This document shows, piece by piece, positions 1,273 to 63,345 of a stretch of DNA of 64,000 bases. The stretch spans positions 372,001-436,000 of the forward strand of contig OZ237747.1 in assembly GCA_965178125.1 (NCBI GenBank), read 5' to 3'. Positions within the stretch are counted from its first letter, which is position 1, and each line of letters starts with the position of its first letter. The notes below the pieces were generated by a model. It saw only the letters and a program-made list of their open reading frames with translations. It was not told where the DNA came from and did no database searches. The translations under genes were made by a program, and so were the position numbers. The DNA comes from Bilabrum cf. latius. Lineage: Eukaryota.

Positions 1273-1391
1273 CGATGGACCCCCTTTGGGCTAGGGGTCC
1301 CCTTTTGTTGATGAGACACCCCCCCGTGCTCAACCCCTTGGCCGGGCGGGGTCCGCCGCCCATTTTCCATTTTCCGTTAGGTCATTTTGGG

Positions 1392-7930: not shown

Positions 7931-8020
7931 CGCAAGATACACAAAAACCTGAGTGGAATTGATGCAGCGGAACCTTGCATACTTGGATATGCGCGGCGCC
8001 GTGGTTCAGGCTCGTTGGAA

Positions 8021-23700: not shown

Positions 23701-23974
23701 GCTTGAGTTAAGTAGTAGACTCTCTATGTGAAGACGTGCAATACACACCAGGCGCATGCTGTCGGGCTCTGGCTCGTGCAGCCAGGTGCTCGTGCAGGCC
23801 AAGATTCCCTCCATCATTCCGGAGAGTGTTTGCCTGTGCAATGAGTGCCTTGCTGTGCGCTGACCCGGCTGTGGAAAACCCCGTGATTGGGCACATCTGG
23901 ATTGTTCTTTGTGTGTTTGAGTTCAATCGTTGAGCTTCAATGACTGCAGCAATCCGCAGGCAATCTGACCAGAT

Positions 23975-26900: not shown

Positions 26901-27392
26901 ATGTCGTACAGCTTGAGAAGGTCCTCCCCGTCCATGCCAACCGTGACTCCCTTCTAGCGCTCTTTGTCTCGAGCTTTTGCGGCGACAACATTCTGCTCAA
27001 AAAGCAAATGCAGAACCTTATCGAGGGCTTCGCTTGGGTCCCCTTCCGTGTCTGCAAGAAGAGTCTCGGCGGCAAGAACAGCGCAGTTGCAGAACGAGCC
27101 AAGAACCATGAGAAGTGGCCACTGAACACTTACCCGGCATGAATGCGGTAGGGAAAATGCTACCAAGAGTATCTCTCAGCATGCTTGCATCGGCTTGAGT
27201 CGTGCACATGTAGCCGAATATTTCGCGGATCTACTCTGCGATGTCCAAGCCATCGTAGACGGCCCATGTCCTGCAATCCAGCAGGAGTTTACGGAATTTT
27301 TCGCAGTGGAACAGAAGCTGTAGGGCAGAATTCACATAGCATAAGTTCTACCCAGTGCCGTTGCGCAATGATCCAGCAGGACGACTGCTCAT
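23975..27392 (-). CDS. Uncharacterised protein with a RanBP2-like zinc finger, a USP53/54-like peptidase His-box segment and a Gly/Ala-rich tail (start uncertain)
   Basis: WRCTACG..ICRNQIC and YWLSGMICFGLNHYIFYAY..WMQFDDGVI..W..V...C. ORFs 26954, 26048, 25277 and 24443 share one frame, joined by TAG, to TAA at 23975. 5' exons inferred from splice signals. Confidence 0.6.
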
Positions 27393-27588
27393 GCCGTCCA
27401 ACTGGCCAATCCCCACAGCGGTTGACTGACCATTTATAGCGTGTGGTTATGACATCCAGTTGTGTGACGAGCAAAGCTTGCTCGAGGTTCAGATGGCTCC
27501 GTATCGTTACTACTACTCGCTTAGTCAATATTCTGTAGCTATTCTGGGGAACTAATTTGTAATCAACGACCACTGGCCGGCTGGTTAC

Positions 27589-29325
27589 ATGGGGTGCGGC
27601 GCTAGTTCCCAATGTGAGTCCGATCGATGTTTCCGTTTTTACTCTTTGGTTCTATTTCTGCAGAACTTGGGAGCTTTGTCGGGAATGTTTTGGGTCTTCT
27701 GTGCATGAATTAGTAGGTGGATTAGTTTGCTTTGCCATGACAGGAAGATCAGGCCTGTGGTTCAAGCTGTGCTCCAATGTAGAGTATACCCCCTGAAGGG
27801 TCGCGACTTCTTCGCCGAGGGCAGTGAACGCTGGTCGAGTTGAGACTCACTAGTGATCTTAGTTCTCATGAAATAACTGCAGTCAGCTTTATTTGCCTTG
27901 TTGCACCTATGCACTCTGCACCAATTGTCCGCAGCGCCGGATGGGACTGACAGGAAGGATTCAGCCTAGGTTGTCCCAGTAGGATCTAAACCACGAGCGC
28001 AGCAAGTAACATTGTCAGAGCAAGCGGGAGATTCTCCTGGTACGACCGCAGAGAGCAAAACAGCGGCTGGCTCTGCGGGCGAGGGGCCAGCAGGCAGTCC
28101 CGGCCCGAACCGGAGGCTTTCCCTGGCCGGTGGGATTGCGCCAGCCAAGACAATCTCGCAAGCAGACGACGCCAAGCGCAGGCGACTGTCGGTCGCGACC
28201 ATTCCGAGCCAGTACGCCAGGCAGGTGGTGGAAGACAATCGGCAGGAGGGCATGGATCCCAAGACACCCGTGCGGGGGCCAGACGGGGGCCGGAAGGCCG
28301 TGCAGCTGCCCGTGGTCTGGGGCCAGTACTCGCGCCCAGGGAACGATCCCATGAAGCGAACCAAGGAAAACCAGGACAGCTTCATCGTGGTTGACGCCTA
28401 CGCGAACGTGAGCGACCAGATGCTCTTCTCGGTGTGCGACGGACACGGGCCCATGGGGGCCCACGCGAGCGCATTCGTCACGCGCCACCTCCCCGCCTCC
28501 TGGGATACCGAGCTGCTGGCCAAGCAGCCGTTCCTTGCGATGAACCAGGGCTGCCTGAAAACCAACCAGCAGCTCTCGGTGAGCGGAATCGACGTGTACG
28601 TCAGCGGAACGACCTGCATCGCCAGCTACCTCAAGGGGAACGTGCTGCACGTGGCCAACGTGGGGGACTCGAGGGCGGTGCTGGGCCGCATGGAGGCGGG
28701 GGGCACCATCCGGGCCATCGACCTGAGCCACGACCAGAAGCCGGACAGGCCCGACGAGATGGCTCGGATCGTCTCGTCGGGTGGACGGGTGTTCGAGTGG
28801 GGCGTGCCTCGGGTTTGGCTCAAGGATGCAGACATGCCCGGCCTGGCCATGGCCAGGTCTTTCGGGGACCTCGCCGCGGAGACCGTCGGCGTGTATGCCG
28901 AGCCTGAGCTGGCCCGCGTGGAGCTTGGCGAGCAGGACAAGTTCGCGATCTGGGCCTCTGACGGGATCTGGGAATTCATCAGCAGCCAGGAGGCCGTGGA
29001 CATAGTGGCGGAGCGCGGGTCTCTGGGCCCCCAGGCCTGCTGCGACGCTCTCGTCAAGGAGAGCACGCGGCGGTGGAACCAAGAAGAGGACGTGGTGGAC
29101 GACACGACGGTGATCGTGGCCTTTTTTGCGTTTGGAACCACTGCATCTGCGAGAAGCTCGCGGAAACCCCCGGTGAGGCGGGCAGGCAGCCAGCGCGCGT
29201 TCATGGATGAGAACGACACGAGCGGAGCGCCCGAGCGAGGCAGCACATCCGGCGAGCAGATGGCGATGCAGAGCATAGGGTCGGACGAGGAAGAGAGATA
29301 GGCAGGCGGGGGCGCCCAAGAGTGA
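27589..29325 (+). CDS. PP2C (PPM-family) protein phosphatase with N-terminal MGCGASS acylation motif
   Basis: Motifs NQDS, VCDGHG, SGTT, ANVGDSRA, DQKPD..DE..RI, GLAMARSFGD, ASDGIWE and DDTTV. Exon 1 27589..27613 (GTGAGT donor) spliced to 27935. TAG at 29299 is followed by 7 codons and then TGA. Confidence 0.88.
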
Positions 29326-29525
29326 GCCAGGGCACACCCCCACCCCGAGCAGCGGCAGTCCTCGAATGGGCAGGAGGTAGCAGGGGACGGCAGCGATGCC
29401 CTCCCCTTCCATCCTATGGATTAAACGAGATTTGTGTTTGTTTCTACTTGGAATGCAACCTAGCACTCTATCGCCCAAGCAGCACCCGGGTGCGGTACTC
29501 ACGATGCTCATCATCACGCAGCCGA

Positions 29526-32363
29526 TCATCCCCGGTGTCGTCGCCTGCGCGCACCGCCGCCGGCCCCGTCCCCACCCCTGCTGCCCCCGTCCCGCGAGGA
29601 CCCGCTCCCCCGCAGCGCCCCTCTCTCCCGCTCCTGCAAGGCCCTGGCTTTGGCTCGGTCCAGCTCGTGCATGTCCACGCTGCCTCTCCTCCTGCGCTCC
29701 CTCGCGGCCTGCGCCATCACCTCAGCCTGCAGCGCGGCGAGACCATCCGCGGCACCGGTGGCACCGGCACCGGCACCGGCGGTGGACTTCAAAGACCCCG
29801 CGCCCGCCCCTCCCGCCGCCACCCTCCGGATCCCGTCCGCCTGCCGGTCCCACTTGTCCGCCTGGCTCCTGCGCATGGCCTTGAGTGCCTCGAGCTCCAT
29901 GGTGACCTTGCGCTCCATGCCCTTCAGCCGCTCCCGCCGGTCGGGATCTGCGCTGCCGACGACCCCTCCACTGCCCCGCCGGCCGGTGCTCGCTCTCCGC
30001 GAGGATGGCCTGTTTCGGCTCTTCGGCACCGTGGCTGTTCCCCGAGCCCTGCCTTCGTCCCCAGAGGCCGAGGTGGCAGGCGACTGCAGCGCCGCCTCCT
30101 GCTTGCGCTCGCCCTCTGCCCCCCTGCCGCGCCTTCTCCTGCGGTGGTTGGCAGCCCGTCTGATGTTCAGGCTCTCCGCCGCCTCGTCCTCGTCGTCCAC
30201 GGCCGGGCTGCCGCTGCTTGTTGTGCCGGTGTCCGAGTCCACCGATACCCCTCGTCTGCTCTGTGTCGGCCTGCCTGTCCTTGTCCTGCCCGTCGCAGAT
30301 CCCCGCCTATCGGGACCTCCCCGCTGCACAGCCGACCCCCTCCTTGCTGGGCCTGCAGCACCTCCGCGACTACCACCGCCTCTGCCTGTGCCTCTGCTCT
30401 AGTCCTCCCCGAAGGCGAGCGTGGCAGTCGGGGAGCCGAACCCATCACCCCCGGGGACCCCCGGCACCTTGGGGGTGAATGACCCCATCATGGGGGGTGA
30501 CCCAGACCCCTTGCCGCTGTGGCCAGAGGCAGACCGGCCGTGGCTCCTGGTCTTGGGCGACGGGGGGCACGGCAGCTCGCCCTCCGCCGCGAGGTGCTCG
30601 TGGATTCGCTGGGCCACGTCCCAGGACGCCGACTGCCCCATGCAGAAGGCGTGCCCGTGCCCCACCGGGTCGATCAGAACCTGCGCCTTGGGCAGCGCCT
30701 GCATGATGATCTCCGGCTCCTTGGGGCGATTCCACTGGTCGCCCACCCCCATGAACATGAGGGTGCGGTCCTCGAAGGCGGAGTACCTTGGCGCGTCCAT
30801 TGCCTGGAGCTCCTTCATCTCGTGCCAGGCCAGGGTCAGAGCGTTCTGAGGGACCCTTCTGTGGAGGAGGGCGCGCATGGCCGCCATGCCCTCTGCAGAA
30901 GGGTCCGCGTACCCGGCCTGCTTGAGGTAGAACAGGGCCAGAGCGTCCAGCAGCATCGGGGGGACGATCGACAGCAGCGATGCGGCGCACCCGTGCGCCT
31001 GCCTGTACCACGTCATGGTGGGGAACAGCCTCACGCCGTTGGGAGTCTCCCCGATGTGCTCCACGGTGGGATACAGACCCACCACCCGACCGACCGACTC
31101 CTCACCCACCGCCCTCGCGCACTCCTGCGCCATGTGCGCCCCGATGGAGTGCCCGCACAGCACCAGGCGGGCCCTCGGCTCGGCGCGCAGCAGCTGGCGC
31201 AGGTACAGAACCTTGTGCCTGATCTACGCTTTGAGGTCCAGCCGCGCGCACAGTGGCTCCGAGGTCCCTGCCACGGCCCTGTCCGGCCCAACGCCGCGCC
31301 TGCCTCGCGAGAGGAAGGGCAGCCAGCTCTGCAGGCCCGTTTCGCCATCAAAGCCGTTTCGTATCATGCCGGTGGACGCTCCGACCCTGTAGGCCACCCG
31401 CATGGTGACCCGCACCGCGGGCCGCAGCACCCGCTCCGTCAGCCAAGACTTCCACCCCACGACAGAGCCCCGTGCGCGTCCCCCGGTCTTGCCCGAGGAC
31501 TTGCTGCCCCCCTTGCCCCGGTCCGGAGTGTCCAGGGATGGAGACTGCCCCGGGGTCTGCTATCCAGAGGATGAGCCGAAGACGGCCCGCAGCGGTGTGA
31601 GCAGCGCAGCTGCCACGGACTCTCCGACGGTGGCGCTCGCGGCCGATCCCTTGCCGCTGCCCCCGCTGGGGGGCTCGTCCGTGTCCATCCCGTACATGGC
31701 CTGAGAGGCCTCGCTACTGACCCCTTCTCCGTGCAGCGCATCTGCGGGAGGGTGCCTGTCCAGCCCGATGGCCGCCATGCACGAGGCCGCCGTCTCGTCC
31801 GCGTCCGCCAGGTCCTCAGCCATGCAGCTCGCCGACGTGTGGCCGACGTAACCGACGCAGTGGACGTGCACCGCCTCCCCACATAAGAGCCATAGGCGAC
31901 GGGTGAAATCGGCGTAGAAGTGCGGCGCACCAGGATTGCCAGGGATCACGACGACGTGCACGGGATCGACACGTCGAGACCTGGAAGTCTTCGCTGACCT
32001 TGCTACGAGGACCTCCGTTGGCCTGCCCCCCACGTCTACAAGTTCAACATGAGGTCCGTGGACTTCGGCTTCTGGCTTACGCTAGCCTTGAACCCATGCA
32101 CGGGAGATAGGCCATACCTAGGGGTCGCGAAGCATGCGACCGCGCGTGCAATCCCAGGCGCATGAAAGCAACTCTACCGCAACCCGGAGCGGCAGCAGCA
32201 ACACATCAACCAGAGACGCGACAATGTAAACGATAAAGGACACTGGGACGTGAATCATGGTGTTCAAAACCGTCTCGTCGAGGAACCCGTACCCGAATTT
32301 GAGCGAGCGAGGATTGGTGGGTTGGTCCTTAGCTTTGGAGCCCGACGGCCCATCCGCTGACAT
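29526..32363 (-). CDS. LDAH: Lipid droplet-associated hydrolase (LDAH/DUF2305 family) with low-complexity insertions and C-terminal extension
   Basis: Motifs VIPGNPG..FY..F, L..*I.HK, CGHSIGA and LYPTVEHI..TPNG. ORFs 32118, 31560, 31224, 30399 and 29526 share one frame, joined by TAG. Ends in TGA. Confidence 0.82.
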
Positions 32364-32537
32364 TCTGTTAGCAAGTGCGGAAGAAATGAATTACTACTTG
32401 ATGAGAAGAACGCCGCGCAGTCGTCAATGCAAAAATCGGTTTGCGTACATGTGAGCGAAGCTTCGATTTCCGAGCAGCGAACCTGAACCGGGACTAAGCG
32501 CCCGAACTGATAGACACAAAACAATCGCATTCAAACG

Positions 32538-33395
32538 TTAGGATGGAGCGACATCCATTGATTCAACCGCATCGGTGCCCGCTGTAGTCGCCCCTTTCAC
32601 CACAGCGCTGCTCTCAGCACCACCACCGGCAAGGACGGTACGCCCGGGGGCCTCACCCGCAGCTCCATCAGCTACCGAGGAAGGCATGTCTGACTTGAAC
32701 CTTCCAGTTGAGAACTCTACCCCGTCGGTAGCTCGGCCCTATCCACCGATGAGGGCGCCAGCAAGAGACGGTGCGGCTGCGGTAGCAGGGAGATCCGTCG
32801 GCGCCGCCCCCGCGCGCCTCCGGTTGTCCCAGCTCTGCTTCTGCTCTTCAGCGATTCGGTGCAACTTTGAGAATGTTTCAGTGCCTTCCTCTGTCTTCCG
32901 CTTCATAATCTCGCGCCAGCCAGATGCCTGGTGCTCCGCGACGGCCTCGTGGGCCAGCGCTCGCTCGTCCTGCGCCCGTCGCGCCATCAGAGTAGCGCAG
33001 CCCAGCCGCCGGTGCCTACGAGCCAGTTCTAGCGCAGTGTATCCACCATTATCTTTCACAGACGGGTCGGCCCCGGCACGAAGCAGGGCTTGCACCGCCG
33101 ACTCTCGCCCGGACCAAGCAGCTTCGTGCAGCGGCGTGTAGCCTGACAGCCGCTGCTTTGTGAAGTCGGCCCCGCTCGCAACAAGATGCTGAACAATCTA
33201 TCTGCTTGAATTCAGTACGGCCAGATGCAATGGTGTCGACCCGTTCTTTGTTTGGGCATCGAGCAGTTGGGGATGATCACGAACAAGGCGAACCACTAGC
33301 CCCACGTCATTCCGAAGTACTGCCTCATGCAGCGCAGTGCCCCCTGCCAGCCTGATATCTTCATGTACATCCAAGTAGTCCATTGAAGCTTCCAT
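32538..33395 (-). CDS. Ankyrin-repeat protein
   Basis: Motifs GTALHEAV, GSTPLHLAV, GYTPLHEAA and GYTALELA. TAG at 33198 (inside a repeat) and 32739. Ends in TAA. Confidence 0.85.
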
Positions 33396-33526
33396 ACTGG
33401 AAAATGCAAGGGGAGTCGCTGCTAGGCTACGGAACCGACGCCGGCGGCCCGGCCACGCGGCGCCTTCCTGTTGCCAAGAAAACTTCGGATCAATTTTGCA
33501 AGTGTAGTTGACAACCTGCGGCTGTA

Positions 33527-36500
33527 ATGGCTGCACGCTTGTGCATAACTGCAATTATGGCAACCTGGGCTGCCACCCGATGGTACTCTTCAGTATCATC
33601 GGGTGGCAAGGTCCGCGGTACAACTAGTAGTAGCCGTGACGTGTCCGCTTCAAGACTTGGCAAGAATTCTCAAGGCCTCTCTGCGCACGACCTTGGGCTG
33701 AAGGATTTGCTTAGTGTGGTTATTAAGGCAGACAAAGACCAGTAGCAGTCACCGGCAATTTTATACGATTCAGGGACAGTTTGGTACGCTGCTGCAGCAT
33801 CACCTCTTTCTAGGGGGTTTCTTGACAGAAGATTATCGCGGCATGATCTACCAAAGCAACATCAATCAGCAACTTCAATCCAAAGTTATGGAAGCACGCA
33901 TCCTGGGTCGTCGCCAAGCTCCTCTGGCTTCCTCCCGGATAATACGTGGGTGGATTGCGCACAACCAGGAAGAAAACAGGCTTTCGAATTGAAGACAAAC
34001 GTAGACCAGCTTCAGACTAGCTTCATTAGAACAGCCGACATGGCTGCAGCGTGCAGAGTGGCGAAGTAGGGCGGATCCGGCGAGCCTGGCCCACCAATGT
34101 CGACGCCTGCGTCGGTGCCAGTGGCCGTAAACCCACTGGCTGCCCTTGGGGATTCACTCCATCGAAGCAATGCAGCTATACCGGATAGCGTACTGTGGGA
34201 TAACGAGCAGGAGAGTGGCCTCCACGAGAGGCACGACAACGCAACCGCCACCCCCCGCGGGTCCTCCCGAGCTGCGCACATGGCGCAGTGGGTCTTTGGC
34301 AGCCCTGACGCCGAAACCATGAGCTGTCTGCAGGATGTCAAAGCGAAGTACAAGTGCGATGCAATCGGCTGTGACGACCAGGTGCAGGGGTTCGTCAATT
34401 ACCTGGCCACGCACGAGTGCACGCTTGGCGGCGCAAGCCTGCAGTGGATTTCGTGGGTCTTCATGATCACATGGCTTCTGTATTTGCTTTACTTTTTAGG
34501 CGATACGGCGGACGAGTTCTTCTGCCCCGTGCTGGACCAGATCGTGATCGTCACTCACATGTCCCCCAACCTCGCGGGAGTCACCTTCCTGTCTTTGGGC
34601 AACGGAGCGCCCGACGCGGCTGCCTCCATCGCCGCCACTCTATCGGGGCAGCTGGACGTGGGCGTGAGCGCAGTGCTCGGTGCTGGTGTGTTCGTGACCA
34701 CGGTGGTGATTGCAATTGTCATACTGCAGGGCGAGGTGACCCTCAACCGGCGGCCCTTCCTGCGGGACACCATCTTCTGCCTGGTGTGCACTCTCTACTT
34801 GCTGGTCTGTTTCGCCGACCAAAAGGTTCGACTGGGCGAGGCGCTCGGGTTTTTGGGGATCTATATCGTGTTTGGTGCCGTGGTGGTGATTGGCCGTCAA
34901 GTGTACTAGGGCAGCAAGCAGCACGCAGACGGCGGACTGGAGGCACCGGCCATGGCGAGACTTGCAGGCGAAGGCGAAGTTGGAGTTGGAGACTAGACCA
35001 AAGCTGCCGCCCCGTGGCAAGCCACAGTAGCGGGTCTGCTCGTTCCCCTGGAAGCTAGTGGGGCCGCTGCACCGCGAGGCCCAGCGCGCAGCCGTGCCCT
35101 CTCGGACGAATGGATGGCCTCCGAACGAAAGACTGAGGTTGTTGCCCGCTTGCACCAAGCCGTTGAGGACCGCACGCTGGGACGTGGGCATGACGCGCGG
35201 CTAGACAGCAGCACTGGGAGCATGCGAGTGGGTACGAGGAGCCCCTTGCTTGCATAGGACAGCCTGTTAGGAGAAGCCGAGATGCAGATTGCGGGCGCAG
35301 GCGCTTTCGCTGACGACCCGGCAACGAATGCCACTGACCGGACACCAGACGCGGCTACAAGGATCCGCAGTGGAAGCATGGTAGAGCGGGGTGACGGCTC
35401 GAACGTACACGGTGCGGTTTCTTCTGCCATGTTTGGCCACCACGAGGCGCCCCGGGCCCATCTCGCCAGCCATGGGTCGGACGGCTACCACGGCCCCGAA
35501 GGCTATTTCCGCGCGCATGGTCGGCGCGCGCGCATGTGGATGCGATTCATCGTGGACCGGGACAGCGGCGCCATCGAGTACTCGCGCCAGGCCCGCTCCA
35601 GGATCGCGCAGAGGAGGAGCGAGCGGCCAGCTGCAGCCAGCGTGAACCTGGAGCTCTCCAAAAACCCTCCTTCGAGCCATACTGGGGCCCCGCTGCTTCC
35701 AGCTGCAGCTCCCGTAGAGTCTCTGGCTCAGGATAAGGCCGACATAGACGAGAACGAAGGCTTTTGCAATGTCATTTGTGGAGAGGATACGGTGCTAGGC
35801 AAGGTGCTGTTCGTGATCTTGTTCCCCAGCAATCTGCTCAGGCAGATCACCGTGCCCTTGCTGGACGAAGACAACTACGACTACCGCTTCGTGGCCCTGA
35901 CATCGCTCTTTGGGCTGCCTTTCATGGCTGCCGTGAGCTTCCAGACCGTAGGTGTGCACCTGCACAGGCTCGTGGAGCCTATCCTGCCGGGTGCACCTGC
36001 GGGGCTGTGCATGCTGCTAGTGCTCGGGCTCACTGGCCTAACCAAGAGCGTGGTTATGTTCTTTACGCTGCCGAGGAAGGAAGTCCCCTAGAGTGCCTGG
36101 GTGGTCGTGCCTCTCCTCATCTTTGGGTTCCTAACGAGCGTAAGCTGGATCATCTTGGTCGCAAACGAGATTGTGGGGCTGCTGGAGGTTCTCGGCCTGC
36201 TGCTCAAGGTGCCGACCAGCGTGCTGGGGCTCACCGTGCTGGCCTGGGGCAACTCGCTGGGCGACCTGATCGCAGACATGACCGTGGCCAAGGAGGGCAA
36301 GCCGGACATGGCCATCGCGGGTGCCATCGCAGGACCCGCTTTCAACGTTGTGGTCGGGCTCGGGCTGAGCCTGATCATTGGCGTGACAGACCGAATGGCT
36401 CAGCACGCCGAAGATCCGTCGATCAAGCCGTACATCGACCTGACGAACCCCGACAACACGACCCCGCTGCCCCAGGCGCAGATTCGGGTCGTGTGGACCC

Positions 36501-36670
36501 TTTTCGGTTTCTTCATCCTCAGCCTCATATCTCTCCTCCTCGTGGTGCCGCTGTCCAGTGACTCATCCTCCGGCAAGTACACCATGCCGAAGTGGTTCGC
36601 TTGGTACCAGCTTGGCTGCTACGCCGCCTTCATGGTGCTCGCATGCACCTTCACCTTCGTGGAATTCTGA
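33527..36670 (+). CDS. Cation/Ca2+ exchanger (CCX/NCLX-like, CaCA superfamily)
   Basis: Alpha-1 repeat AGVTFLSLGNGAPD and alpha-2 repeat LGLTVLAWGNSLGD, with multiple TM helices. Single frame from ATG 33527 with TAGs including 33743, 34067, 34907 and 36089. Ends in TGA. Confidence 0.9.
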
Positions 36671-37073
36671 GGGTGCAGCGAGCTGGTGCCCCTCGACCAA
36701 GAGCTGAGGGATGGCCGCACGCACACCCGCGTTCGTTTGTATGCGGCCCTACATTTGTACAGAAATTTATTTCGCCGAGCCGGTCTTGCCAGGTGGCAAT
36801 GCCGGGAACCTGCTGCTGCGGGTGGCGCGCCTCGAGGAGGGATGCGTGCTGCTCGGTCAGTTAAGCGGCCTTAGTGGAATTTCATTCCAATAGGGCTTGG
36901 AGCGGATATTCGTGCGTACGTTGCAGGCATACTTGTCAACGTCTAATTGTGTCACCATCATGCAAATAAGCAGCCACAAGTTGTGGCCCACAACACCACC
37001 AATCGGCAGGCGAACCTTCGCATCGAACCTGCTTGTTCCCGATCTCTGGGCTCGACATTTTCAGACGCATACC

Positions 37074-38837
37074 ATGGCAGCGAGCGGCGAAGCTTCAGGT
37101 ACCGCCGGTGGATAGGAGCCAAACCCTATTGTAGATAAGCCAGATGAGACGGTGGAGCTAGAAGGGGCTGCGGTAGTCGCGGATGATGCCCACACGGGGT
37201 TGGAAGGGGTGGACGATTCGGAAGCTGATGATACCGTCGTTGAAGGAGCCAGGGCAAAAATATCGGAGGAAGACCCCGATGAAATTGAGGATATTGCCGT
37301 GGTTCGATTTAATGGGCATGAAGACAGCGTATACTCGGCTGCGTTCCACCCAACCCTGCCGGTGATTGCGTCCGGTGACGGCGACGACACCTTGCTGGTG
37401 TGGGATGCAGCCAGGGGAGAAATCGTGCAAAGGGATTCCAAGTCCACGCACAAAGACACTGTTATGTTTTCGTAGTTCTCGCCCGATGGGAAGTACCTCG
37501 CAACCTGCTCCATGGACAGCACCATCCAGGTGTTCAAGGTGCACCAGGGGCCAGAGGCACCTGCTCCGGCTGCTGGGGGCTCCAGCGGCGCATCTGCAGG
37601 CTCCTCTGCGCCATCAGCATCAGCGTCCTCCTCGAAGCCAAGCAGCGCCCCTGCGGCGGAGGGGAGCGGCCAGGTCCGCCTCACCAAGGGCAGCGCTCTG
37701 GTGGGGCCCGGCGGCGACTTCAATTTCGCCGCGTGGCACCCGTCGTCTCCCGCCCTTCTGGTGGGTTCTGAGGACTGCATGGGATGGGTCTTTGACGCCA
37801 GGAACGGGAAGCTGCTCGCTTCCCTGGCCGGGCACGACGCCGGCGTGCTGTGCGGGTGCTTCTCACCCAGGGGGAACACGGTGCTGACCGGGTCGGTGGA
37901 CGGGACCGTGCGCTCGTGGCACGCTGTGACGGGCGAGTGCAAGCAGGTCATCCAGGGCAGAGGGTGGTTCTCGGAGGGAGAGCCTGTCCTCACGCTGGCG
38001 TGCCACCCGAGTCAGCCCCTTGTGCTGGCGGGGGCAGCGGACGGGACGGCCCGCCTGGCCAACTACAAGACGGGCAAGGTCATCGCGACGTACTCCCACA
38101 CGAAGAGGATCGGGTCCACGGCAGTGGGAGGGTCCGGTGCCGATGCCGGGGGCGTGCGTGCCCTGACTGACGATGGGGATTCTGCCGCGGCTGGGGCTGG
38201 GGCCGGGTCTGGCGCAGGGACAGGGAAGGGGCAGGGGAAGGGCGCGGAGGCAGAGGCGGGCGGGGTCAAGACCTCCGACTTGCACGACGGTGCCGCGGAG
38301 GACGTCGCCGTCACGGTGGAAGGCGTTGGGTTTTGCACATGCGGTTTGAATTGGGCAGCAACTGGCGCGACCGACGGCTCCCTGTGCATCTGGGACCTTG
38401 GTTCGAATTCGATGCGGAGGAGCTTCGTGCAGGAGGGCAGCATCACGAGGATCCAGTGGCACCCAGAGCTGGCTTGCGTCATCACGGCCGCGGCGGACGG
38501 GACGCTGCGGGTGTTCGATGCGCGGGCCGGGAAGGAGCTCTCCAGGGTGGCCGCGCACAGCGGAATGGTCCTGGACATGCAGATGTGGAGGGCACCTGCA
38601 GCGGTCGCTGCAGCGGCTGGGGAGGCGGGAAAGGAGGCAAAGGCAGGCGGCACCGACGCGGATCCAGGAAAGGGGGCCGCTTCCGGTGCTGGGGCAGGGG
38701 CAGGGGCGGCGGCCGGGGGGGACGACGTGGTGGTGACAGGCGGCGCGGATGCGGCCAGCAGGTTCAAGCCGGGGCAGTTGTACATCCTGACCGCCGGCGA
38801 TGACCACTCTTGCGCCGTGTTTGAGCTGCACGGATAA
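37074..38837 (+). CDS. AAMP: WD40 protein, AAMP/Sqt1-like ribosome assembly factor
   Basis: Acidic N-terminus; motifs FNGHEDSVY, SGDGDD..VWD, HKDTV...FSPDGKYLAT..MD, WHP, GH..GV.CG.F and G.VDG. TAG at 37113 and 37473. Ends in TAA right after the last WD strand. Confidence 0.8.
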
Positions 38838-38959
38838 TGTTTCGTCGCTGCGCATGCCATCCACGGGCGGGTTGAATTGGCGGCCCGCCGCCGCCGGCAA
38901 AGCCGGAACCGCCGGGGAAACAAGAGCCAAAAAGTTTCCACCGCTAGTTGCCCGCCACC

Positions 38960-39931
38960 ATGGACATCACAGAAGTCGATGCGTTCGTTGACAAACACGC
39001 AGATACTGGGCTTGCATTTCTTACGGTTGGAACCACGTCCTTTGACGACTTAGTGAGCGAGGCCTGCACGCAAGCTTTCTGCAAAACAGCCAAAGAGAAA
39101 CACAGAATATCGGGTCTATTGGTACAGCTTGGGCGAGGTCATTGGCCAGAATGTTTTATTAATGATATTAGTGACAGCCACAAGACTGTATAGGTCAGGG
39201 AAGTTCGAAAGGAGTGCCGGATAGCGGAAGGCTTGGGTATCGAAGTGCTTGGATTCACGTTCAGGGCAGGTATTTCAGACTTGTTTGCGTCGGCCAAGCT
39301 GGTCATCAGTCATGCAGGTGAGTCAGAATGCATTCATCTACTTGGTCAATGCCGAATTAACGAAATATTCCGCTGTCGAGCAGACCCCACACGTTCGACC
39401 ATCGCAGGCACTGGCAGTATCTTCGAGTCTTTGCGTGCTGGCAGACCGCCGCTAGTGGTAATCAATGCTTCGCTAATGGATAATCACCAATTGGAGGTGG
39501 CAGAGGCATTGCAGAGCGCGAAGCACTTGCGCCACTGCACACCGAGCTCTGTGACCGAAGCCCTTGGTACATTCGACCCCGAGGCGCTCGAGCCCCTGCC
39601 CCCCTCTAACACCAGCATCGTAGTTGCAGCTTGTCGTGACGAGGCAGGGCTCGTGCCGCTCGACCTGATCGACGACGTGGAGGAGGAGCTGAAGCGGCGC
39701 AGAGTTGGCTTGCCGAGCTCGGCTGCAGCAGCAGCCGAGGGCTCCACGGTCAGGCTGGCAGGGGCGGCTGGGGAACAGGCAGCCAGCGGAGGGGCCAGCG
39801 CGTCTGCCACGAGTGGCGGCAGGGCGTCAGGGTCTCTGCGGTCCCGAGGGAACGCGTCAGGCAAGAACAAGAGCACGAGGAAGGGAAGGAAGAAGAAGGG
39901 TAGGGCGGGTAGGGGTGCTGGCGGCAGTTGA
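38960..39931 (+). CDS. ALG13: UDP-GlcNAc transferase catalytic subunit ALG13
   Basis: Motifs FLTVGTTSFDDL, VQLGRG, VISHAG|TGSIFESL and VVIN..LMDNHQLEVA. TAG at 39191. Intron 39318..39407. Ends in TGA. Confidence 0.9.
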
Positions 39932-40186
39932 TGTGATGGGTAACTGCAGCAAACGTGCCTTCCATGACGCGATACACGCGCGTGAGCTGCTTCGTGGCTA
40001 CAGACACTAAAGACGACATTCATGAGACTGTCTGTTGTTGGCAACAGAAGCACTCTACACGGCGAGAGCAATCCGCAGTTTGCACCTCGTAACCCGCCGT
40101 GTATCATCTCCAAGACACGAACACGTCTCGCCACCAGGATGCACCCTACCTCAAGCCCTTTCAGCTGGCACCGATAGAGGGCCGGC

Positions 40187-40817
40187 TCAGTTCTTGATGT
40201 CGATCAGCTCCACATCGAACACGAGCGTAGACCCGGCGGGGATCTTGTCTCCCATCGCGCGGTCGCCATAGGCCATGCCGCTGGGGATGGTGAGCTTGCG
40301 GCGCTCGCCGATGCACATGTTAAGCAGGCCCTGGTCCCATCCCTTGATCACCTGGCCCTGGCCGAGGGTGAACTCGAAGGGGGTGCCGCGGTCGCGGGAG
40401 GAATCGAACTTTGACCCATCAGTCTGCGAAAACGGTGGGATTCCGCGTGGTGTCGGACGAGTATTGTGGACAAATATATAGATACGGTAATCGCAGTCGT
40501 CCTAAGGTGGTCCTATCTTACGTAAAGAGTACCAGTGTAATGCATCGCAAGCTTGTCCCCGCTTTTGGTCTTGCGGTCGCACTCGTCCTTTGCGACACGC
40601 TTCTTTACCCCGATACGCAGCTTTCCGTCCTGCAAATGAAAAAATGATGAGCCGCAATAGCATCCTTGCGCTGCATGCCGCAGAAACCGGTCCAAGGAGA
40701 CGCACAACGTGGCACTCTACGGATCTTGCCGTAACTTACGGCTGGCAGGTTCTCCTTTCCGAATGCAAGGCCCAACAAAGCAAACAGCGCGATAGCTACG
40801 AACCTAGTTACTGCCAT
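40187..40817 (-). CDS. FKBP2: ER-type FKBP peptidyl-prolyl isomerase (FKBP2-like)
   Basis: Signal peptide, then [22 protein letters not shown]|..[42 protein letters not shown]. Two introns. Ends in TGA. Confidence 0.92.
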
Positions 40818-40972
40818 TGCCTTTCTTCCTTTCAAAATGAACTGCGGGCCACAAGTTGCCGCTTTGCGCAGCAAACCAGACACGATCCACAAAATGCACG
40901 CAACCATAAACCACCATGGGAACCTGTTTGACCTGCGGCTCTGGTGCCCGGGCACGGACCATGTCCCCTTCC

Positions 40973-43446
40973 TCACGCCTGCTTGCCCTCTCCCGCATCC
41001 GCGGCCTTGATCTTGTCGATCACCTCCACGGCGGCCTTGGGGATCCGCGTCCCTGGCCCGAACACGGACGCCACACCGTGGTCGTACAGGAACTGGTAGT
41101 CATCAGGCGGGATCACTCCGCCGGCGATCACCACGATGTGCTCGCCGCCCATCTGCTTGAGGCACTCCACCAGCTGCGGGATGAGCGTCTTGTGCCCCGC
41201 CGCCTGGGAAGAGATCCCCACGGCGTGCACGTCGGCATCGATGGCCTGCTGCGCCACCTCCTCGGGCGTCTAGAAGAGCGGGCCCACGTCCACGTCAAAG
41301 CCCATGTCGGCAAACCCGCTGGCGATCACCTTGGCCCCCCGGTCGTGCCCGTCCTGGCCCATCTTTGCGACCAAAATGCGCGGCCGCCGACCCATGTCCT
41401 CCACGAACCGGTCCACCGCACTCGTCACGGCGTCCATCTCGTGCGCGGCGGACGAATCGGTTCCGAATTCCTGCTTGTAGGCCCCTTGCACGACCCCGTC
41501 CTTGAGCACGTGCCTGCCCCACACGGCCTCCAGAGCGTCCGAGATCTCGCCCACGGTGGCCCTGGCCCTCGCTGCCTCCACAGCCAGGGCCAGCATGTTC
41601 ATCGGGTGCTTGCCGCTGCCAGTCGACTCGGTCACCTTTGCCGACTCGGTGAGCTTGGCCAGCGCGGCATCCACCGCCGCCTGGTCTCTCTCTCCCCTCA
41701 CCTTCTCCAGCCTGGCTGTCTGCCCCTTCCTCACTGCCGTGTTGTCCACGTGCAGCACGTCCACCTTCTCGGGGTTCTCCACCACGTACTTGTTGACGCC
41801 CACGATCACTTCCTGCCCCGAGTCGATCCTCGCCTGCTTCCTCGCCGCGCTCTCCTCGATCCTGAGCTTTGGCATCCCCGAGTCGATGGCCTTGGCCATG
41901 CCTCCCAGCTCGTCAATCTCCTCGATGATGCCCCTCGCCTTGTCCACAAGGTCGTTCGTCAGGGACTCCATCATGTAAGAGCCCCCCCACGGGTCCACCA
42001 CCTTGGTGATGCCCGTCTCCTCCTGGATCATCAACTGCGTGTTGCGGGCGATCCGCGCCGAGAACTCAGTGGGCAGGCCCAGGGCCTCATCGAACGAGTT
42101 GGTGTGCAGGGACTGCGTGCCTCCCATGACAGCGGCCATCGCCTCCACCGCCGTCCTCACCACGTTGTTGTAGGGGTCCTGCTCCGTGAGAGAGTACCCC
42201 GAGGTCTGGCAATGGGTCCGCAGCAGCCAGCTCTTGGGATCCTTTGCGCCCACCTTATCCCGGAGGAGCTCGGCCCAGAGGGTGCGGGCCGCCCTCAGCT
42301 TGGCCACCTCCATGTAGAAGTTCATCCCGATCGCGAAGAAGAAGGAGAAACGCTTGGCCACAGAGTCCACGTCCAGACCCGCCTTTTGAGCGCACTGCAC
42401 GTACTCGATACCATCTGCCAGGGTGAACGCCAGCTCGAGAGCTGCGTCGGCCCCCGCCTCCTGCATGTGGTATCCAGAGATGGAGATGCTGTTGAAGCGG
42501 GGCATGTGCTCCGCCGTGTACCCGAAGATGTCCGAGATGAGCCTCAGGGATCCTTGCGGGGGATAGATGAAGGTGTTGCGCACCATGAATTCCTTCAAAA
42601 TGTCGTTCTGCACTGTGCCTGTGAGCGCCTCCTGAGAGACCCCTTGCTCCTCGGCCGCCACGATGTACATGGCCATGACGGGCAGGATGGCGCCGTTCAT
42701 CGTCATGGAAACGCTCATCTTGTCCAGTGGGATCCCGTCGAAGAGGATCTTCATGTCCTCCACCGAGTCGATCGGCACTCCGGCCATGCCCACGTCTCCC
42801 TGCACCCTCGGGTGGTCCGAGTCGTACCCCCGGTGCGTCGCCAGGTCGAAGGCCACAGAGAGGCCCTGCTGGCCTGCCGCGAGGTTCTTGCGGTAGAAGG
42901 CGTTGCTCTCCTCGGCCGTTGAAAAGCCCGCATACTGCCGGATCGTCCACGGGCGGTACGTGTACATCGTGGCGCGAGGACCACGGGTGTACGGAAAGTG
43001 CCCACTCAGCTACGACACCGATAGATCCTGCGATGCAACGGAGAGAGCAGATGTAGCAGCCGACAAGTCGGGCGGAAATTCTATGAACGCAGTGTTTTCG
43101 TATTATTCTGAGCACCCTGAGGCCAGCCAAGGCAAAAACAGGCACGTGTGCGCTGCCACATCACCGCATGATCACACCAGCGCAAGACGCGCAACTGCTA
43201 TATTCTGCTTACCTTTGTATCATCCTCTGTGTAAATTGGCTTGATATCTATTCCCTCTGGCGTTCTCCAGACGAGGTCGTCAGCAGACTTCTTGCCACGA
43301 AGCTCCTTATCTGCCAGCTCCTGCCATTCCTTGGGGAGCTCCATGCTAGACATTCTGGGAGAAGCAGTGGAAAACACGCGCCTTGTGCAAGAGAGACCAT
43401 AAAGTCGTCTGCTCAATCGCCTGGATTGCCGCATCATGCTTTGCAT
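40973..43446 (-). CDS. MUT: Mitochondrial methylmalonyl-CoA mutase (B12-dependent)
   Basis: Motifs [31 protein letters not shown]12-binding GQDGHDRG and GPLF*TPEEVA. Arg/Ser-rich transit peptide. Intron 43028..43212. TAG at 43010 and 41270. Ends in TGA. Confidence 0.96.
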
Positions 43447-43787
43447 GGTGTGCTGAGAGCCCTTTTGTATGCATCGCAGCTCTGGCGCGGGCGGTTGTAA
43501 CCATTCAAGTTGAAAATGGGTCGCCGCGCGTTCGGTTCCGCTGGAGAGCGTGTCTCTCGAAGCGCGCTGCGACGAATACAAACGCCGGCTATCCAGCTGC
43601 CAGCGCGAGGTTTCCCGTATTTAGGCCAGCACAGGTCTGTATACACGTATTGTTTTGCTTTGAAAGCGCGTTCACGCTCCGGAATCCCTCGAAGCAGGCG
43701 CAGCAGGTATTCCAGAGCTTCGTCGTTCCTGACGTTTTACGATTGGCTGACGCCAATCTTGCGCGTTGATTCATTGTTATTGACAAA

Positions 43788-45418
43788 ATGTCGGATGATG
43801 GGAGGCGTAGAAGAGCAAGAAGCCGCTCGTACACTTCGGAAGAACTTATTGCTGACATTGACGGGGGTGTATCAGAATCACCGCCAGTAGCGGCAGCATC
43901 GGAGGGAAGCGCGCCAGGGCTGCCGCCTCCAAGAGCGCGGAGCGGGAGTTAGAGCTCTGGGAGCTCTGGAGGCAGCGCTGGGAGAGGGGCGGCTGGAGCT
44001 AGCTCGAGAAAGGCGCCAGCCCTGAGCTAGCGCACCAGGAATATCCTGTCCCTGCAATCTGATCCTCGCGAACAGCACATGAGTCCCACCAAAACAACAA
44101 GCGCATTCGAACAGGCTTATGGTGATGACGACGAGGAAGAGGAGGCCAGGTACCATGAATCCACGCGAAGACGAGCAGAGGCCGAGGCGCAGCGCTCCTC
44201 CGCGTCAACCACCGCCTCCGGTGCGACCGGAGCCCCGCCTGGTTCGGCCGGGGGCGGGCCAGCCACTAGCTCGGGCGGCGCCTCTGCGAGCACAGGTTCC
44301 TCCGGAGGCTCCAGCGGGAAGGCTCGAGCCCCGGGCGAGTTCCTGCTGGAGCGGATTCCTCGCCGCCCGGGGGAGGAGGCCCCCAAACATGACCGTCAGA
44401 TCAAGCTGCTGATGCTGGGTGACAGCGGGGTGGGAAAGACCAGCCTGCTGATGCGGTACAGCGAGGACAAATTCATCGAAGGGGTGCTGTCTACTGCCGG
44501 GTGAGTCAAGTCAAGTCAAGTCAAGTCAACGCCAGCCCCACAGGATTGCGGGGGTATCCGATTGCACGCGTGCAGCCATGCCCCGGGTCCCAGCGCGCCT
44601 GATCCCCCGCCCCGCCCCCGCGTTGCTGCCTCCGATCCATGCCTGCGCAATATCAAATCGAAGCCTTCTCTTGGTTCACCATATCCATTCGTATACTCTA
44701 GGTACATCTCATCTCTTCGTCCTTCCTCCTCTCGCAGGGTCACGTTCCAGACGCAGTACTTCAACGCAGAGGGGCTCAAGATCCGGTGCGATTTCTGGGA
44801 CACTGCGGGCCAGGATAGGTTTCACGTGATCACACAGGCGTACTATGCCGGGTCGCACGGTATCATCCTTGTGTACGACGCTGCCGACCACTCCGAGCAG
44901 TCGTTTCAGAGTGAGCTTCTCTGCACGATCTGCGCGCGAGTTCTCGTGCGCTTGAGGAGACTACCCCCGTGCTGCCGCTTTAGATGCCGCTTTTGACGCT
45001 TCAGTTTGGTTCAATGATAGTATAGTCGTGTGCGCTCCTCACCCGCTTTCCTCGCTCGCTTTGCCCCATCGCCCCTCGTCGCGCAGATGTGCGGTACTGG
45101 ATGGACAATATCCACAAGCACGCGAGCTCGAACTGCGTGAAGGTGCTGCTGGGGAACAAGAGCGACCTGCCCGACAAGGCAATTTCCAGGGAGCAGGGCC
45201 AGGAGGTCGCGGACGAGTACGGCATGGCCTATTTCGAGACGAGCGCCAAGACGGGCTTCAACGTCGAGGAGGCCTTCTTTCAGATCGCGAGGACGGCCAT
45301 CGCAAAGCAGGTGGAGGTCGGGGCCATCGCGCTGCCTGATGGGATGAAGGCGGCGGGGGGTGGTGCGGGAGCTGCTGGAGGGAAGAAGGGCAAGGATGGG
45401 CCGTGCGTGATCTCGTGA
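43788..45418 (+). CDS. Rab GTPase (Rab8/RabE-like) with ~200-aa low-complexity N-terminal extension
   Basis: Motifs [24 protein letters not shown] and C-terminal CVIS. Introns ~44501..44737 and 44911..45086. Two TAGs in the extension. Ends in TGA. Confidence 0.87.
44504..44529 (+). repeat. Intronic pentanucleotide microsatellite (AGTCA)5 next to the splice donor
   Basis: gtgagtcaagtcaagtcaagtcaagtcaac. Confidence 0.85.
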
Positions 45419-58765: not shown

Positions 58766-61700
58766 TTACTTCCAATCGAGCACATCCTCGTAGAGACCAA
58801 GCACCCTGCCAACAGTGGTGCGATTGGTTGCCGCTAAGGGGCCATCCGTGCTGAGAACCGCGCGAGCATCGTTCGCCGCCTCACCAAGGTCCGTCCGAAG
58901 GCTGCTTAGTGTCGCAATAAAGTCGTCAGCATCGTTATCCTGGTGGTATTGCTCCAATTCAGTACTCGCAGCCCTGCTCACCAGTGCACCGGGTGACGCG
59001 GCGAGTCGCCAGCCAGGCCCAGCCAGCCGCCTTCCTGCGGCCCCCACGAGCTGCGTGCGGTTCAGGTAGTGTTTCATCTAGGAAGGAAACACCTGCTTGT
59101 CAATGACTCGCTTGATGAGTGCCCCACGGCGAGCATACCCCTGAGCGTACTGCAGAGAAGAAGATGCAAAGGCATCTGGAGAGTACCCGGAGTCTCGCAG
59201 CTTGCCACCAGCTGCATTCCACTCGACTCTGACAGACCCCACGAGGATATGCTCGTCGTACGGCTGCACCACTGGCTGTTGCAGCGGAGGGGTGAGTACG
59301 GTTGCCACTAGATTGTGACCATCATACGTGTACCAGCTCTATTCCGGGGATGTCTCTGGGTGCCTGACGAACGGCAGGTCGATTGGCTGCGTTGCGCCTG
59401 CCGGGCTCACCGCAGCTGCGCTGATTGGCATGCACGAGATCACTTCGATCTAGAACTATCGATCGCTGAGCATCCCATCATAAGACCCATTCACGAAGAT
59501 GTCGATGAACATGGACGCATCGGTTCGGTTGCGAAGCTAGAAGCTCGTCCAGCTGGCTCCCGCCGGAGCAGTCGCTGCTGCTTCCACGCCCCTCAGAGCA
59601 CCACCCTGCTCAGCGGTATCGGCAGCGTCGCCCGAGCTAGCGATCGGCGTGGTTGTGTTGGTCCACGCAAGGGTCACCCCATCGTCTTCGTAGAACGCGG
59701 TGGAGCCTGCCGCAGCTCCAGGGTACACCCGCACACCGACCCTCGGGTAGAAGGACCGCGTGCCGACCCCAACGGTGTCCATCGGGTCGTATGGCATGAA
59801 AGGCACCAGCGCGCCTGCGCGCACAAACATAGGTACCTCCGATACGTCCACATGCATTGAATGAAGCCCGCCACCGTCTTCGTGGAGAGGGACGAACGAA
59901 TGGCTAGCCTGTAGGATGGTGCTGCCGTTCCAGGCAGGCGAGCTGGCGCTGGCGTTCTGGAGCGAGGAAGGCCGCACCATGCCGCCCTGCAGCAAAGAGA
60001 ACCACCACTCTTCCGATGCACGCTACGACGCAGACGGGATATCGCCATGAAGCTCAACTGCGTTGCCTAAGCCGCTTCCAGGAAGCCACACCGACCACAA
60101 GGCCAGAGAGGAGTTCGGGTTCGATGGTGAGGTCACTGGGGACACGATCATGTCGGGTCCGAGCATGTACTGCTGCGTCACAGTACCATTCCTGTACGCA
60201 TCTTTGGCGAGCGGGTAGTGCAAGTACATGGGTCGGAGTGGTCCAACCCCGGTGTCATGCTGCACCCTCCACAGCGAGTAGTGCACGGGCAGCATCTCGT
60301 GTCGGCGAATCGCTGCCTCGCGCATCGACTGGTACTGCTCGTCCGGGAATAGCCAGATCACAGGCATGAATTGTCCCTGCCAGTCCCAGCCGCCCGGGAG
60401 GGGAATGCCAGACCCGTGGGTGCGGTACATGGCAGATACAGTGGCGGCCTGCACCCACCTCACGTTGAACTCCATCGCGCCCGGTATACCACCGGCGGCG
60501 TCGTGCGTCCACTGCCAGTAGGCGTTGGTTGCCGTCGAGGAGAAGTAAGGCAGGAACCGCAGCGAGTGCCACGACCGCTCGTAGTCGCCGCTAAACCCGA
60601 GCGTGCCGTCACGATGCTGCCCCATGCCCCCGTACCGCGACAGGCTCCAGCTCCGGACGTTCTCACCGCGCCGAGCCGCCGTGCTAGACCGGACGAAGTT
60701 GAGCAGGTAGGTTGGACTCCATCCGGGTATGCTCACGCCAGTGGATCCGCCTTGTTGCCAGTCTGTCCACTGCACTGCGGCGCCTGCACCGACCAGCCGC
60801 TGCACAACGATGTCCTAGAGCGCAAGCATGTAGTCTTCGTCGGTGGCGTTGAAGCGGATTGGATCGTTGTACGTCGGTGGCAGGCCCAGGGCCCGCTTCA
60901 TGGCCTAGTACTGCTCTTCGCACGGGTGCACCCCGTCCGCGTCATGAAGGTTCAGGCCCACCTGCAGCCCCCTCGCCAGCAGCTGGGCCATGGAGTCGTT
61001 GAAGCCGTACGGCGGGGCGAATGTGTTCGAGTCAGGCGTGTATCCCGTCCATCCGTTCGGTCCGACGCAGTCGCCGTGGAACTCCATATCGATGATGAGC
61101 ACGCTCAGTGGCCTGCGGGGCAAAAAAGGGCCGGAGCTTGCTAGGCAGGTACGGGCAGATCCTGTTTGAGGGGTCAGGTTTCATTTGCATGCGACTTACA
61201 GTGACCGCAACTTGTGCTGCTGCGCGATCTCCACGGCGTCATCCGCGCCAATGTCATACCACCTGCAAAACATGACGTCCAGCGGCGCGCGGGGTGGCAT
61301 GGCGGTCCTTCCAGACAGCCGGGCGAACGCCTTCAGAGCCCCCATGTAGTCGGCCCCATGCAGGGATATGTAGAAATCGAGTAGGTCGGTTCCGTTTGGG
61401 CTAGCACGGCCCTCGGCTGGCGCAGCAGGCCAGCCCGTTTCCGTCGCAAAGCGCGGGCTCGACGTGTCGTCGAGAACGAACCAGCCCTGGCTAGAAGGGA
61501 TTCCAAGCGAGCAGTGCAAGTCCTCATTGTGCGGCAAGACATCGCGATTTTGGCTGCAGTTCAGGTCCAAAAAGCCGCTCAATTCGTCGAGAGTCCTGAC
61601 AGTCCCGAACATGTTGCCTGACGCCGTCTAGCCGAGGCGCCAGGTGAACGGAGATCCCGAGATAGGATCGACGGACTCCGCTGAAATCGCAACTCCGTTT

Positions 61701-63185: not shown

Positions 63186-63345
63186 ATAAATTCAGAGCGC
63201 TGCTTTTGAAAAGTCTGATAGGGCGGCGCACGATCCGGCCAACTTTCAATTCGGAGCAGATGTGCAACTGCGACCATAGGCTCTATCGCAACCCGGGCAA
63301 AACAAACACGCACCTGGACATAGCTTTATAAAGTTTATAGTCTGT

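Follow-up and report, generated by a model that had tools for sequence, protein, structure and literature searches.

The nuclear genome of Bilabrum cf. latius, analyzed here through a 64,000-nucleotide stretch of contig OZ237747.1 (assembly GCA_965178125.1, positions 372,001 to 436,000; hereafter the window), very probably reads UAG as a sense codon, most likely for glutamine, and has UAA and UGA as its sole terminators, a pattern that corresponds to NCBI table 15. Inside conserved, expressed genes of the window, TAG is frequent and TAA never occurs, and TAA is located exactly where homologous proteins end. UAA and UAG are thus decoupled in the window, UAA terminating translation and UAG being sense, as an initial annotation of the same sequence had proposed, starting from the TAA codon that closes a WD-repeat gene of the AAMP/Sqt1 type (Table 1).

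Termination at TAA in the WD-repeat gene and in other genes

The claim that the WD-repeat gene ends with TAA directly after ...FELHG was borne out by homologous proteins. A search with the 587-residue protein gave 428 matches at E <= 1e-10, 15 of which were aligned, and among the best 120 of the 428 matches the three closest full-length homologues of moderate distance (P0003, P0004 and P0005; 39-41% identical) share their final alignment column with the window protein, their last residues being ..FEVGI, ..LELEL and ..LELGI. The last of the three is a Cafeteria roenbergensis protein by its source name, and the 97% identical P0001 terminates in this column too. Ten more distant Sqt1/AAMP-type proteins, in contrast, extend 11-18 residues past it. 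The coding score is 0.409 before the TAA and -0.170 after it. Some of the homologues carry the source name 'ribosome assembly protein SQT1', and a PDB sequence search with the WD protein returned generic WD40 repeats only, which are uninformative on the C-terminus.

The cleanest evidence that positions 38835-38837 are a terminator comes from comparison with L001, a 10,448 bp metagenome contig and the single relative obtained from one scan of metagenome contigs. L001 is syntenic with the window, comprising genes encoding the lipid-droplet hydrolase, the ankyrin-repeat protein and the WD protein, followed by those encoding GT28 and FKBP. Its WD orthologue, 68-69% identical, finishes with GAC CAC TCG TGT GCC ATA TTC GAG CTG CAT GGA TGA and therefore has the same last residue (...FELHG), with TGA in the column of the window TAA. 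The ORFs (open reading frames) of L001 contain 18 TAG and 0 TAA in frame, at CAA/CAG = 39/58; four of them are closed by TGA and one (GT28) by TAA. The C-terminal tails of the ankyrin and GT28 proteins are too diverged between the window and L001 for stop positions to be compared; the L001 ankyrin orthologue, whose tail cannot be aligned, closes with TGA.

All five TAA codons listed by the initial annotation (WD, ankyrin, 'USP-like', GH31 and ceramidase) close long ORFs that are open only with TAG as a sense codon. In the case of GH31, two relatives (P0129, 89% identical, and P0130, 35%) end exactly in the column of the TAA and another (P0131) continues for seven residues, these being the three of six aligned relatives that reach the C-terminus; distant GH31 homologues align only over residues ~20-370/500. 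The ceramidase TAA lies within two residues of the end of P0122, five more distant ceramidase homologues have variable tails, and P0121 is truncated. After the TAA of the WD, ankyrin and GH31 genes the coding score falls as it does after TGA stops. The 'USP-like' product matched no Pfam family at E <= 0.001, and an RNA contig crossing its TAA continues into the converging carboxylesterase gene and is uninformative on the stop. In the inventory of genes, 16 ORFs or terminal exons close with TGA, five with TAA and none with TAG; the earlier count was 15 TGA-ended frames, and the statement made with it that no frame needs TAG as a terminator stands.

Two other TAA codons were rejected as gene ends. 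The TAA at 61196..61198 (-) belongs to a predicted GTAAGT donor within the GH31 gene, where the minus strand reads TCA CT/GTAAGTCGC...CCCCGCAG/G CCA CTG (slashes mark the putative intron borders). Removal of ~87 nt up to the CAG acceptor would join two ORFs in frame, and the predicted donor and acceptor resemble those of the six introns seen in spliced contigs (see below). The TAA of the pectinacetylesterase (PAE) ORF 7538-8005 (-) closes an exon-bearing ORF only, as the Pfam PAE match continues in other same-strand frames, 6975-7634 and 6452-7216, the latter of which closes with TGA.

Under the standard code the longest stop-to-stop ORF has 674 aa; opening TAG alone yields ORFs of 3255, 1861, 1315, 1191, 1066, 1052, 954, 804, 791 and 709 aa, whereas opening TAA alone extends the longest ORF merely to 693 aa. 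Pfam searches of the TAG-open ORFs identified formin FH2 (3.7e-56) together with ankyrin repeats, MM_CoA_mutase (9.3e-230), WD40 (1.8e-39), Ceramidase (2.4e-29; alkaline ceramidase), Ras (4.1e-18), Na_Ca_ex, LIDHydrolase (lipid-droplet hydrolase), GT28, GH79, PHD fingers and GH31, and further domain matches were PAE, carboxylesterase, PP2C and FKBP. A tally of in-frame TAA, which the initial annotation had suggested as a check, was run on 15 ORF parts of the window, each taken to begin at its first ATG or at an exon edge and to finish at the stop: their 14,723 codons include 109 TAG, 0 TAA and 0 TGA.

These counts bear on the code in which UAA and UAG are both reassigned to glutamine (UAR=Gln, NCBI table 6), TGA is the only stop, and TAA merely seems missing from coding sequence as a result of GC richness. 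The window does have a GC content of 56-68%, its A-ending codons are in the minority (CAA/CAG = 122/400, i.e., 0.305, with a CAA share of 0.234; TTA/TTG 0.128), and in-frame stretches beyond some TAA codons stay open for 37-108 codons. If TAA were used like CAA, however, ~33 TAA would be expected, and the probability that all 109 TAR codons are TAG would be (1-0.234)^109 = 2.5e-13; even at the lowest A-ending share observed (TTA, 0.114) it would be 1.9e-6.

Since the ORFs are themselves delimited by TAA, the absence of in-frame TAA is partly circular, and a flank test was therefore applied to all TAA, TAG and TGA in six frames. A codon-usage score was calculated over 50 codons on each side, and a codon was called internal when the flanks on both sides were coding-like and contained neither TAA nor TGA. 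By this definition 0/381 TAA, 57/953 TAG and 4/1531 TGA are internal, the four TGA being false positives of the test. As no TAA is flanked by coding-like sequence on both sides, the WD and GH31 TAA coincide with homologous C-termini, L001 has TGA in the column of the WD TAA, and opening TAA adds so little to the ORFs, we regard the UAR=Gln code as very improbable, and its exclusion by the initial annotation holds within the window because the C-termini match, L001 has TGA, and the codons counted hold no TAA.

The same data were considered with respect to a context-dependent code, where UAA (or UAG) would serve as both sense and stop according to its position, as in Blastocrithidia, Condylostoma and karyorelicts. 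Such codes exist (PMC12153298; bioRxiv 10.1101/2022.04.12.488043; both accessible in part), the ~21 genes of the window would miss rare internal TAA or rare TAG terminators, and two TAG codons are located 7 and 10 codons before the TGA of ORF 7916-10291. On the other hand, internal TAA is absent from all codons counted, TAG is spread throughout the genes, 3' ends included, and TAA or TGA stands at the homologous C-terminus in each of six genes whose ends can be compared (WD, GH31, ceramidase, MCM, Ras and FKBP), none of them needing TAG. A context-dependent code is thus unlikely, and among the ~21 genes the earlier statement that there is no sign of one agrees with our results.

Several points weigh against a code with UAA and UGA as sole terminators and UAG as a sense codon. 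The data set comprises no more than 64 kb with ~21 genes and a single 10-kb relative, and only the flank test and the homology of C-termini are independent of the TAA-based ORF limits. The TAA of the ankyrin and 'USP-like' ORFs, two of the five, are placed by the ORF end and the coding score, without homology support, and the drop in coding score is weak at the 'USP-like' TAA (0.066 to 0.011) and at the ceramidase TAA (-0.006 to -0.154), this GC3-type score being weak in low-complexity tails such as those of the two genes. The contigs described below cannot reveal transcript 3' ends, and the decoding mechanism proposed below is inferred from general decoding rules.

TAG in expressed genes and the amino acid assigned to it

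Seventeen public runs were listed for positions 36000-44000, 16 of which contain all or part of this interval, and contigs of four runs (X1, X5, X6 and X7) were mapped on 23500-43400; the mapping is confined to this stretch, and the GH31 and ceramidase region with the predicted GH31 intron lies outside it. Contigs of X1 are colinear with the DNA, whereas those of X5, X6 and X7 show six joints with GT..AG or CT..AC borders (27051/27134, 27613/27935, 39313/39404, 40423/40522, 40628/40739 and 43026/43212). Because of these joints, X5-X7 were taken to contain spliced RNA; no run is recorded as RNA, and the RNA content is a reading of the joints. Introns are few and short, with GTAAGT, GTGAGT or GTAAGA donors and acceptors ending in CAG. 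A contig covering most of the WD gene (X5 record 12, 37102-38667) and three contigs of the MCM gene (X5 record 14, X6 record 20 and X7 record 26) have 0 differing letters compared with the window, and these contigs include the in-frame TAG codons at 37113, 37473, 41270 and 43010. As spliced contigs keep TAG without a single differing letter, the transcripts contain TAG and editing does not remove it. The interval 38667-38911 is not spanned by any contig listed, and this blank was not counted as evidence.

In-frame TAG could in principle be untranslated, if the genes were pseudogenes, if the assembly were faulty or if the mRNA were edited to CAG. Apart from being a general possibility, this would be in line with public gene calls made under the standard code, which do truncate these genes. 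Yet 109 TAG compared with 0 TGA and 0 TAA in frame is unlike pseudogene decay, four DNA-like runs and three runs with spliced contigs agree with the window, the spliced contigs retain TAG, and TAG occupies different positions in the conserved proteins of the window and of L001. We therefore consider untranslated TAG extremely improbable.

The amino acid inserted at UAG was approached by codon-level alignment of the three genes common to the window and L001. This gave 21 columns with TAG on one side, four of which lie opposite gaps; in the remaining 17 pairs the partner is CAG in eight and CAA in two, i.e., a glutamine codon in 10/17. Restriction to conserved context (at least 9 of 13 neighboring residues identical) leaves nine pairs, with CAG in six, CAA, AAA and AGG in one each, and thus glutamine in 7/9; among these nine pairs no Leu, Ser or Tyr codon stands opposite TAG. 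At WD codon 134, located in a conserved blade, TAG faces glutamine in the closest relatives, and in MCM it lies opposite a glutamine of the human protein (Table 1). Among 120 MCM homologues, glutamine is the commonest residue in both TAG columns (Q 60 in the column of 41270; Q 32, D 20 and E 20 in the other), and close relatives have glutamine at ceramidase codon 77 and GH31 codon 122, both TAG in the window.

Assignment of UAG to another amino acid, such as leucine in exLh, serine in Scotinosphaera or glutamate and lysine in some ciliates, has to be weighed against these data. Counting for it, and against glutamine, are the 7/17 window/L001 pairs with other partners (GAG in two, AAA, AGG, CCC, AGC and GCG in one each), the T, A and K that close relatives have at three further TAG codons of GH31, K at ceramidase TAG codon 186 in P0122 (51% identical), and the high share of serine (S 49) in the MCM column of 41270. 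None of the other amino acids exceeds two of the 17 pairs, in contrast to ten for glutamine, which also leads in both MCM columns and, additionally, in three TAG columns in close relatives. A different amino acid is accordingly a poor candidate, with about as little probability as a context-dependent code, and UAG most likely specifies glutamine, although the sample is too small for a final call.

Proposed decoding of UAG, lineage and related codes

The manner in which such a code would be read can be outlined from established decoding rules, from which both a tRNA with the anticodon CUA and an altered eRF1 would follow. If UAG is read without UAA, CUA would be the only possible anticodon: a tRNA-Gln carrying it would read UAG, its C34 would be unable to pair with the A of UAA, and no tRNA with the anticodon UUA would exist. 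If UAG is sense, eRF1, which is the single eukaryotic release factor and normally reads all three stop codons, would have lost or weakened its recognition of UAG and retained that of UAA and UGA. ARAGORN detected no tRNA gene in either the window or L001, and neither of them encodes eRF1. The same scheme, with CUA as the only possible anticodon and an altered eRF1, was argued for Iotanema and exLh in section 9 of a report accessible in part (PMC5304391), where the eRF1 changes given for the two lineages are T32G (Iotanema) and Ala at position 69.

The code is shared by L001, in which protein identity to the window is ~69%, and is therefore a property of a lineage and not of one strain. Close public protein fragments are 81-97% identical to window proteins (P0001, P0121, P0128, P0129 and P0175), and the lineage with ~70% identity is represented by L001 and P0002. 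P0002 stops exactly at a TAG of L001, P0175 stops before GH31 codon 548, which is TAG in the window, and the public predictions P0002, P0175, P0129, P0001 and P0121 are all fragments that start or end at or near TAG. The proteins of these relatives are cut in this way because gene calling with the standard code meets the code described here.

As to the organism, the only named close match of the WD protein among the best 120 of 428 is that from C. roenbergensis. The best named MCM matches are 71-78% identical and come mainly from stramenopiles (oomycetes, Hondaea, Ectocarpus, Heterosigma, Nannochloropsis and Blastocystis); the top one is labelled Symbiodinium (78%), and a few fungi reach 70-72%. 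Judged by these best named matches only, without a tree, the organism is probably a heterotrophic stramenopile near bicosoecids and related to Cafeteria.

The window code displays every testable feature of codes in which UAG specifies glutamine and UAA and UGA terminate. The comparisons that follow rest on the accessible parts of the sources cited. Decoupling of UAG from UAA was first reported in 2017, for Iotanema (UAG=Gln) and the rhizarian exLh (UAG=Leu) (PMC5304391); UAG=Gln with UAA as a stop was later described in Protocruzia tuzeti and, twice, in phyllopharyngean ciliates, and UAG=Ser in Scotinosphaera (McGowan et al., 2024; PMC11687900). The closest counterpart is Iotanema spirale (Metamonada: Fornicata; Panek et al., 2017; PMC5304391), which, like the window, has UAG=Gln and UAA and UGA as stops, and for which the mechanism inferred is the one proposed here, a tRNA-Gln(CUA) and an eRF1 with weakened UAG recognition. 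It belongs, however, to an unrelated supergroup, its code is known from transcriptome evidence, whereas ours is known from genomic DNA, spliced contigs and a syntenic relative, and its primary stop is UAA, while TGA dominates in the window (16 TGA vs 5 TAA); T32G has been reported in its eRF1.

Ciliates with UAG-only glutamine (phyllopharyngeans and P. tuzeti; PMC11687900) use the same code, with several independent origins; the window proteins, in contrast, are closest to stramenopile ones. In exLh and Scotinosphaera UAG and UAA are decoupled and UAA is a stop, as in the window, but the amino acid differs (PMC5304391; PMC11687900), the window TAG facing glutamine codons in 10/17 pairs. The table 6 codes of many ciliates, hexamitin diplomonads, ulvophytes, Streblomastix and Amoeboaphelidium (PMC11687900) share UAG=Gln with the window and differ in that UAA is also glutamine, whereas TAA in the window is never in frame and lies at homologous C-termini. 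NCBI table 15 (TAG=Gln) is a codon table identical to that of the window, i.e., a formal description and not a lineage; genetic code 15 has also been predicted for some phages (PMC9523058), the biology of which is unrelated.

No nuclear stop-codon reassignment in a stramenopile or bicosoecid was found in the literature, of which the coverage of subscription journals was thin, and in a 2024 stramenopile review 'genetic code' occurs only in a mitochondria reference. The runs are from 2025, so that a description could still be under way or have appeared in a journal outside this coverage. We tentatively suggest, at a little below even chances, that the window presents the first nuclear stop-codon reassignment in a stramenopile, UAG to glutamine with UAA kept, in a heterotrophic lineage that, by one gene, has Cafeteria as its closest named relative. 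The change would then be old and clade-wide, since at least two members with ~30% protein divergence, the window organism and L001, share it. If this is true, the code arose in a GC-rich genome (56-60%), in which AT mutational pressure offers no obvious route to codon loss, and the public DNA and spliced RNA data would allow direct identification of the tRNA-Gln(CUA) and the eRF1 change.

UAA and UAG usually shift together, and Iotanema, a rhizarian, Scotinosphaera and some ciliates are the few decoupled cases, every independent one of which shows that eRF1 and the tRNA pool can distinguish UAA from UAG. If the window lineage adds an independent origin in another supergroup, its GC-rich and intron-poor genome, together with the diverged relative that has the same code, would provide a convenient system in which to identify the tRNA and eRF1 changes. 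In practical terms, genomes of the window lineage should be annotated with table 15, as their public proteins are now cut at TAG.

Gene content and further observations

The coordinates of the genes and codons discussed above, together with those of the remaining ORFs, are collected in Table 1. The C-terminal Cys-Val-Ile-Ser of the Ras-family GTPase is presumably a CaaX prenylation box. The ORF at 10419-11864 (+), which has no homologues and no Pfam family, could be either a 5' exon or the sixth gene closed by TAA, and another TAA-ended ORF, at 63423-63779 (-), also has no homologues.

Table 1. Genes, terminators and in-frame TAG codons of the window (cells are empty where no value is available).
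Feature	Extent	Strand	Codon and position	Remarks
WD-repeat (AAMP/Sqt1-like) gene	ORF 36708-38837; CDS 37074..38834	+	TAA 38835..38837	CDS of 587 codons from first supported ATG; spliced-run contigs begin at 37073-37102; 38814-38837 = GCC GTG TTT GAG CTG CAC GGA TAA (...FELHG + TAA)
Ankyrin-repeat ORF	32538-33554	-	TAA 32538..32540	ORF end; coding score 0.231 to -0.053
'USP-like' 1066-codon ORF	23975-27175	-	TAA 23975..23977	ORF end; converging carboxylesterase ends at 23700
GH31 glycosidase	58766-61180	-	TAA 58766..58768	TGA one codon later in frame
Alkaline ceramidase	62475-63191	-	TAA 62475..62477	P0122 (51% identical) ends 2 residues further
481-codon ORF	10419-11864	+	TAA 11862..11864	Just upstream of formin gene; coding score total 46.8
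MCM		-	TGA 40973..40975	113/120 homologues without a residue past the last residue of the window protein
Ras-family GTPase		+	TGA 45416..45418	Directly 3' of C-terminal Cys-Val-Ile-Ser; translation ...GPCVIS
unk1	1185-5132		TGA, end 5132	1315 codons
unk			TGA, end 5996	
PAE			TGA, end 6449	
unk2			TGA, end 10291	
Formin	11752-17337	+	TGA, end 17337	16 TAG in frame
unk5			TGA, end 17473	
Carboxylesterase			TGA, end 23700	
PP2C			TGA, end 29325	
LIDH			TGA, end 29526	
Na/Ca exchanger	33512-36670	+	TGA, end 36670	
GT28			TGA, end 39931	
FKBP	40187-40850	-	TGA, end 40187	
GH79			TGA, end 45802	
PHD			TGA, end 58603	
In-frame TAG, WD codon 134		+	TAG 37473..37475	Conserved WD blade; Q in P0001 (97%) and P0002, CAG in L001
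In-frame TAG, MCM		-	TAG 41270..41272	Opposite Q of human MCM (GPLFQTP); unchanged in X5, X6 and X7 spliced contigs

Gene order around the WD gene differs in part between the window and L001. The window has its Na/Ca-exchanger gene between those for the ankyrin and WD proteins; this gene is absent at that position of L001 (2256-5110 compared), and a protein-kinase gene (5623-7572, minus strand) instead sits after the WD gene there. The FKBP counterpart of L001 is 91% identical over 78 residues and is oriented opposite to the WD gene.

In the window, the gene encoding the FKBP-type isomerase contains two introns (40424-40521 and 40629-40738) and has the top contig depth of the mapped stretch in X6 and X7; an X7 contig shows a loose run of 20 A 'behind' 40837 (+), in the interval that separates the FKBP gene from the MCM stop. 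Near its 5' end the MCM gene is interrupted by a 185-nt intron at 43027-43211 (-), so that its first exon lies beyond 43212 and position 43102, the start of the stop-to-stop ORF, is not the protein start; the first exon presumably holds a mitochondrial presequence.

Upstream of FH2, the formin carries ankyrin repeats at its N-terminus, a weak match to WW and an extended Pro/Arg/Gly repeat. The ORF at 1185-5132, for which no Pfam family was found, ends in a Ser/Pro/Thr-rich tandem peptide repeat (~4700-5050, +) with units like SPSTSPTASVSS. Inside the 'USP-like' gene, the summed contig depth at 24828-25491 is several hundred times that of adjoining bins in all four runs (e.g., 8427.9 in X5; 7682.3 in X1), loose ends are numerous at 25016-25085, and the segment looks like a short repeated or low-complexity element. 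In the Na/Ca-exchanger gene, an X6 contig differs from the window at 16 positions within 34555-34666, with spacing mostly in multiples of three, which points to another allele, a paralogue or a related strain in that run.

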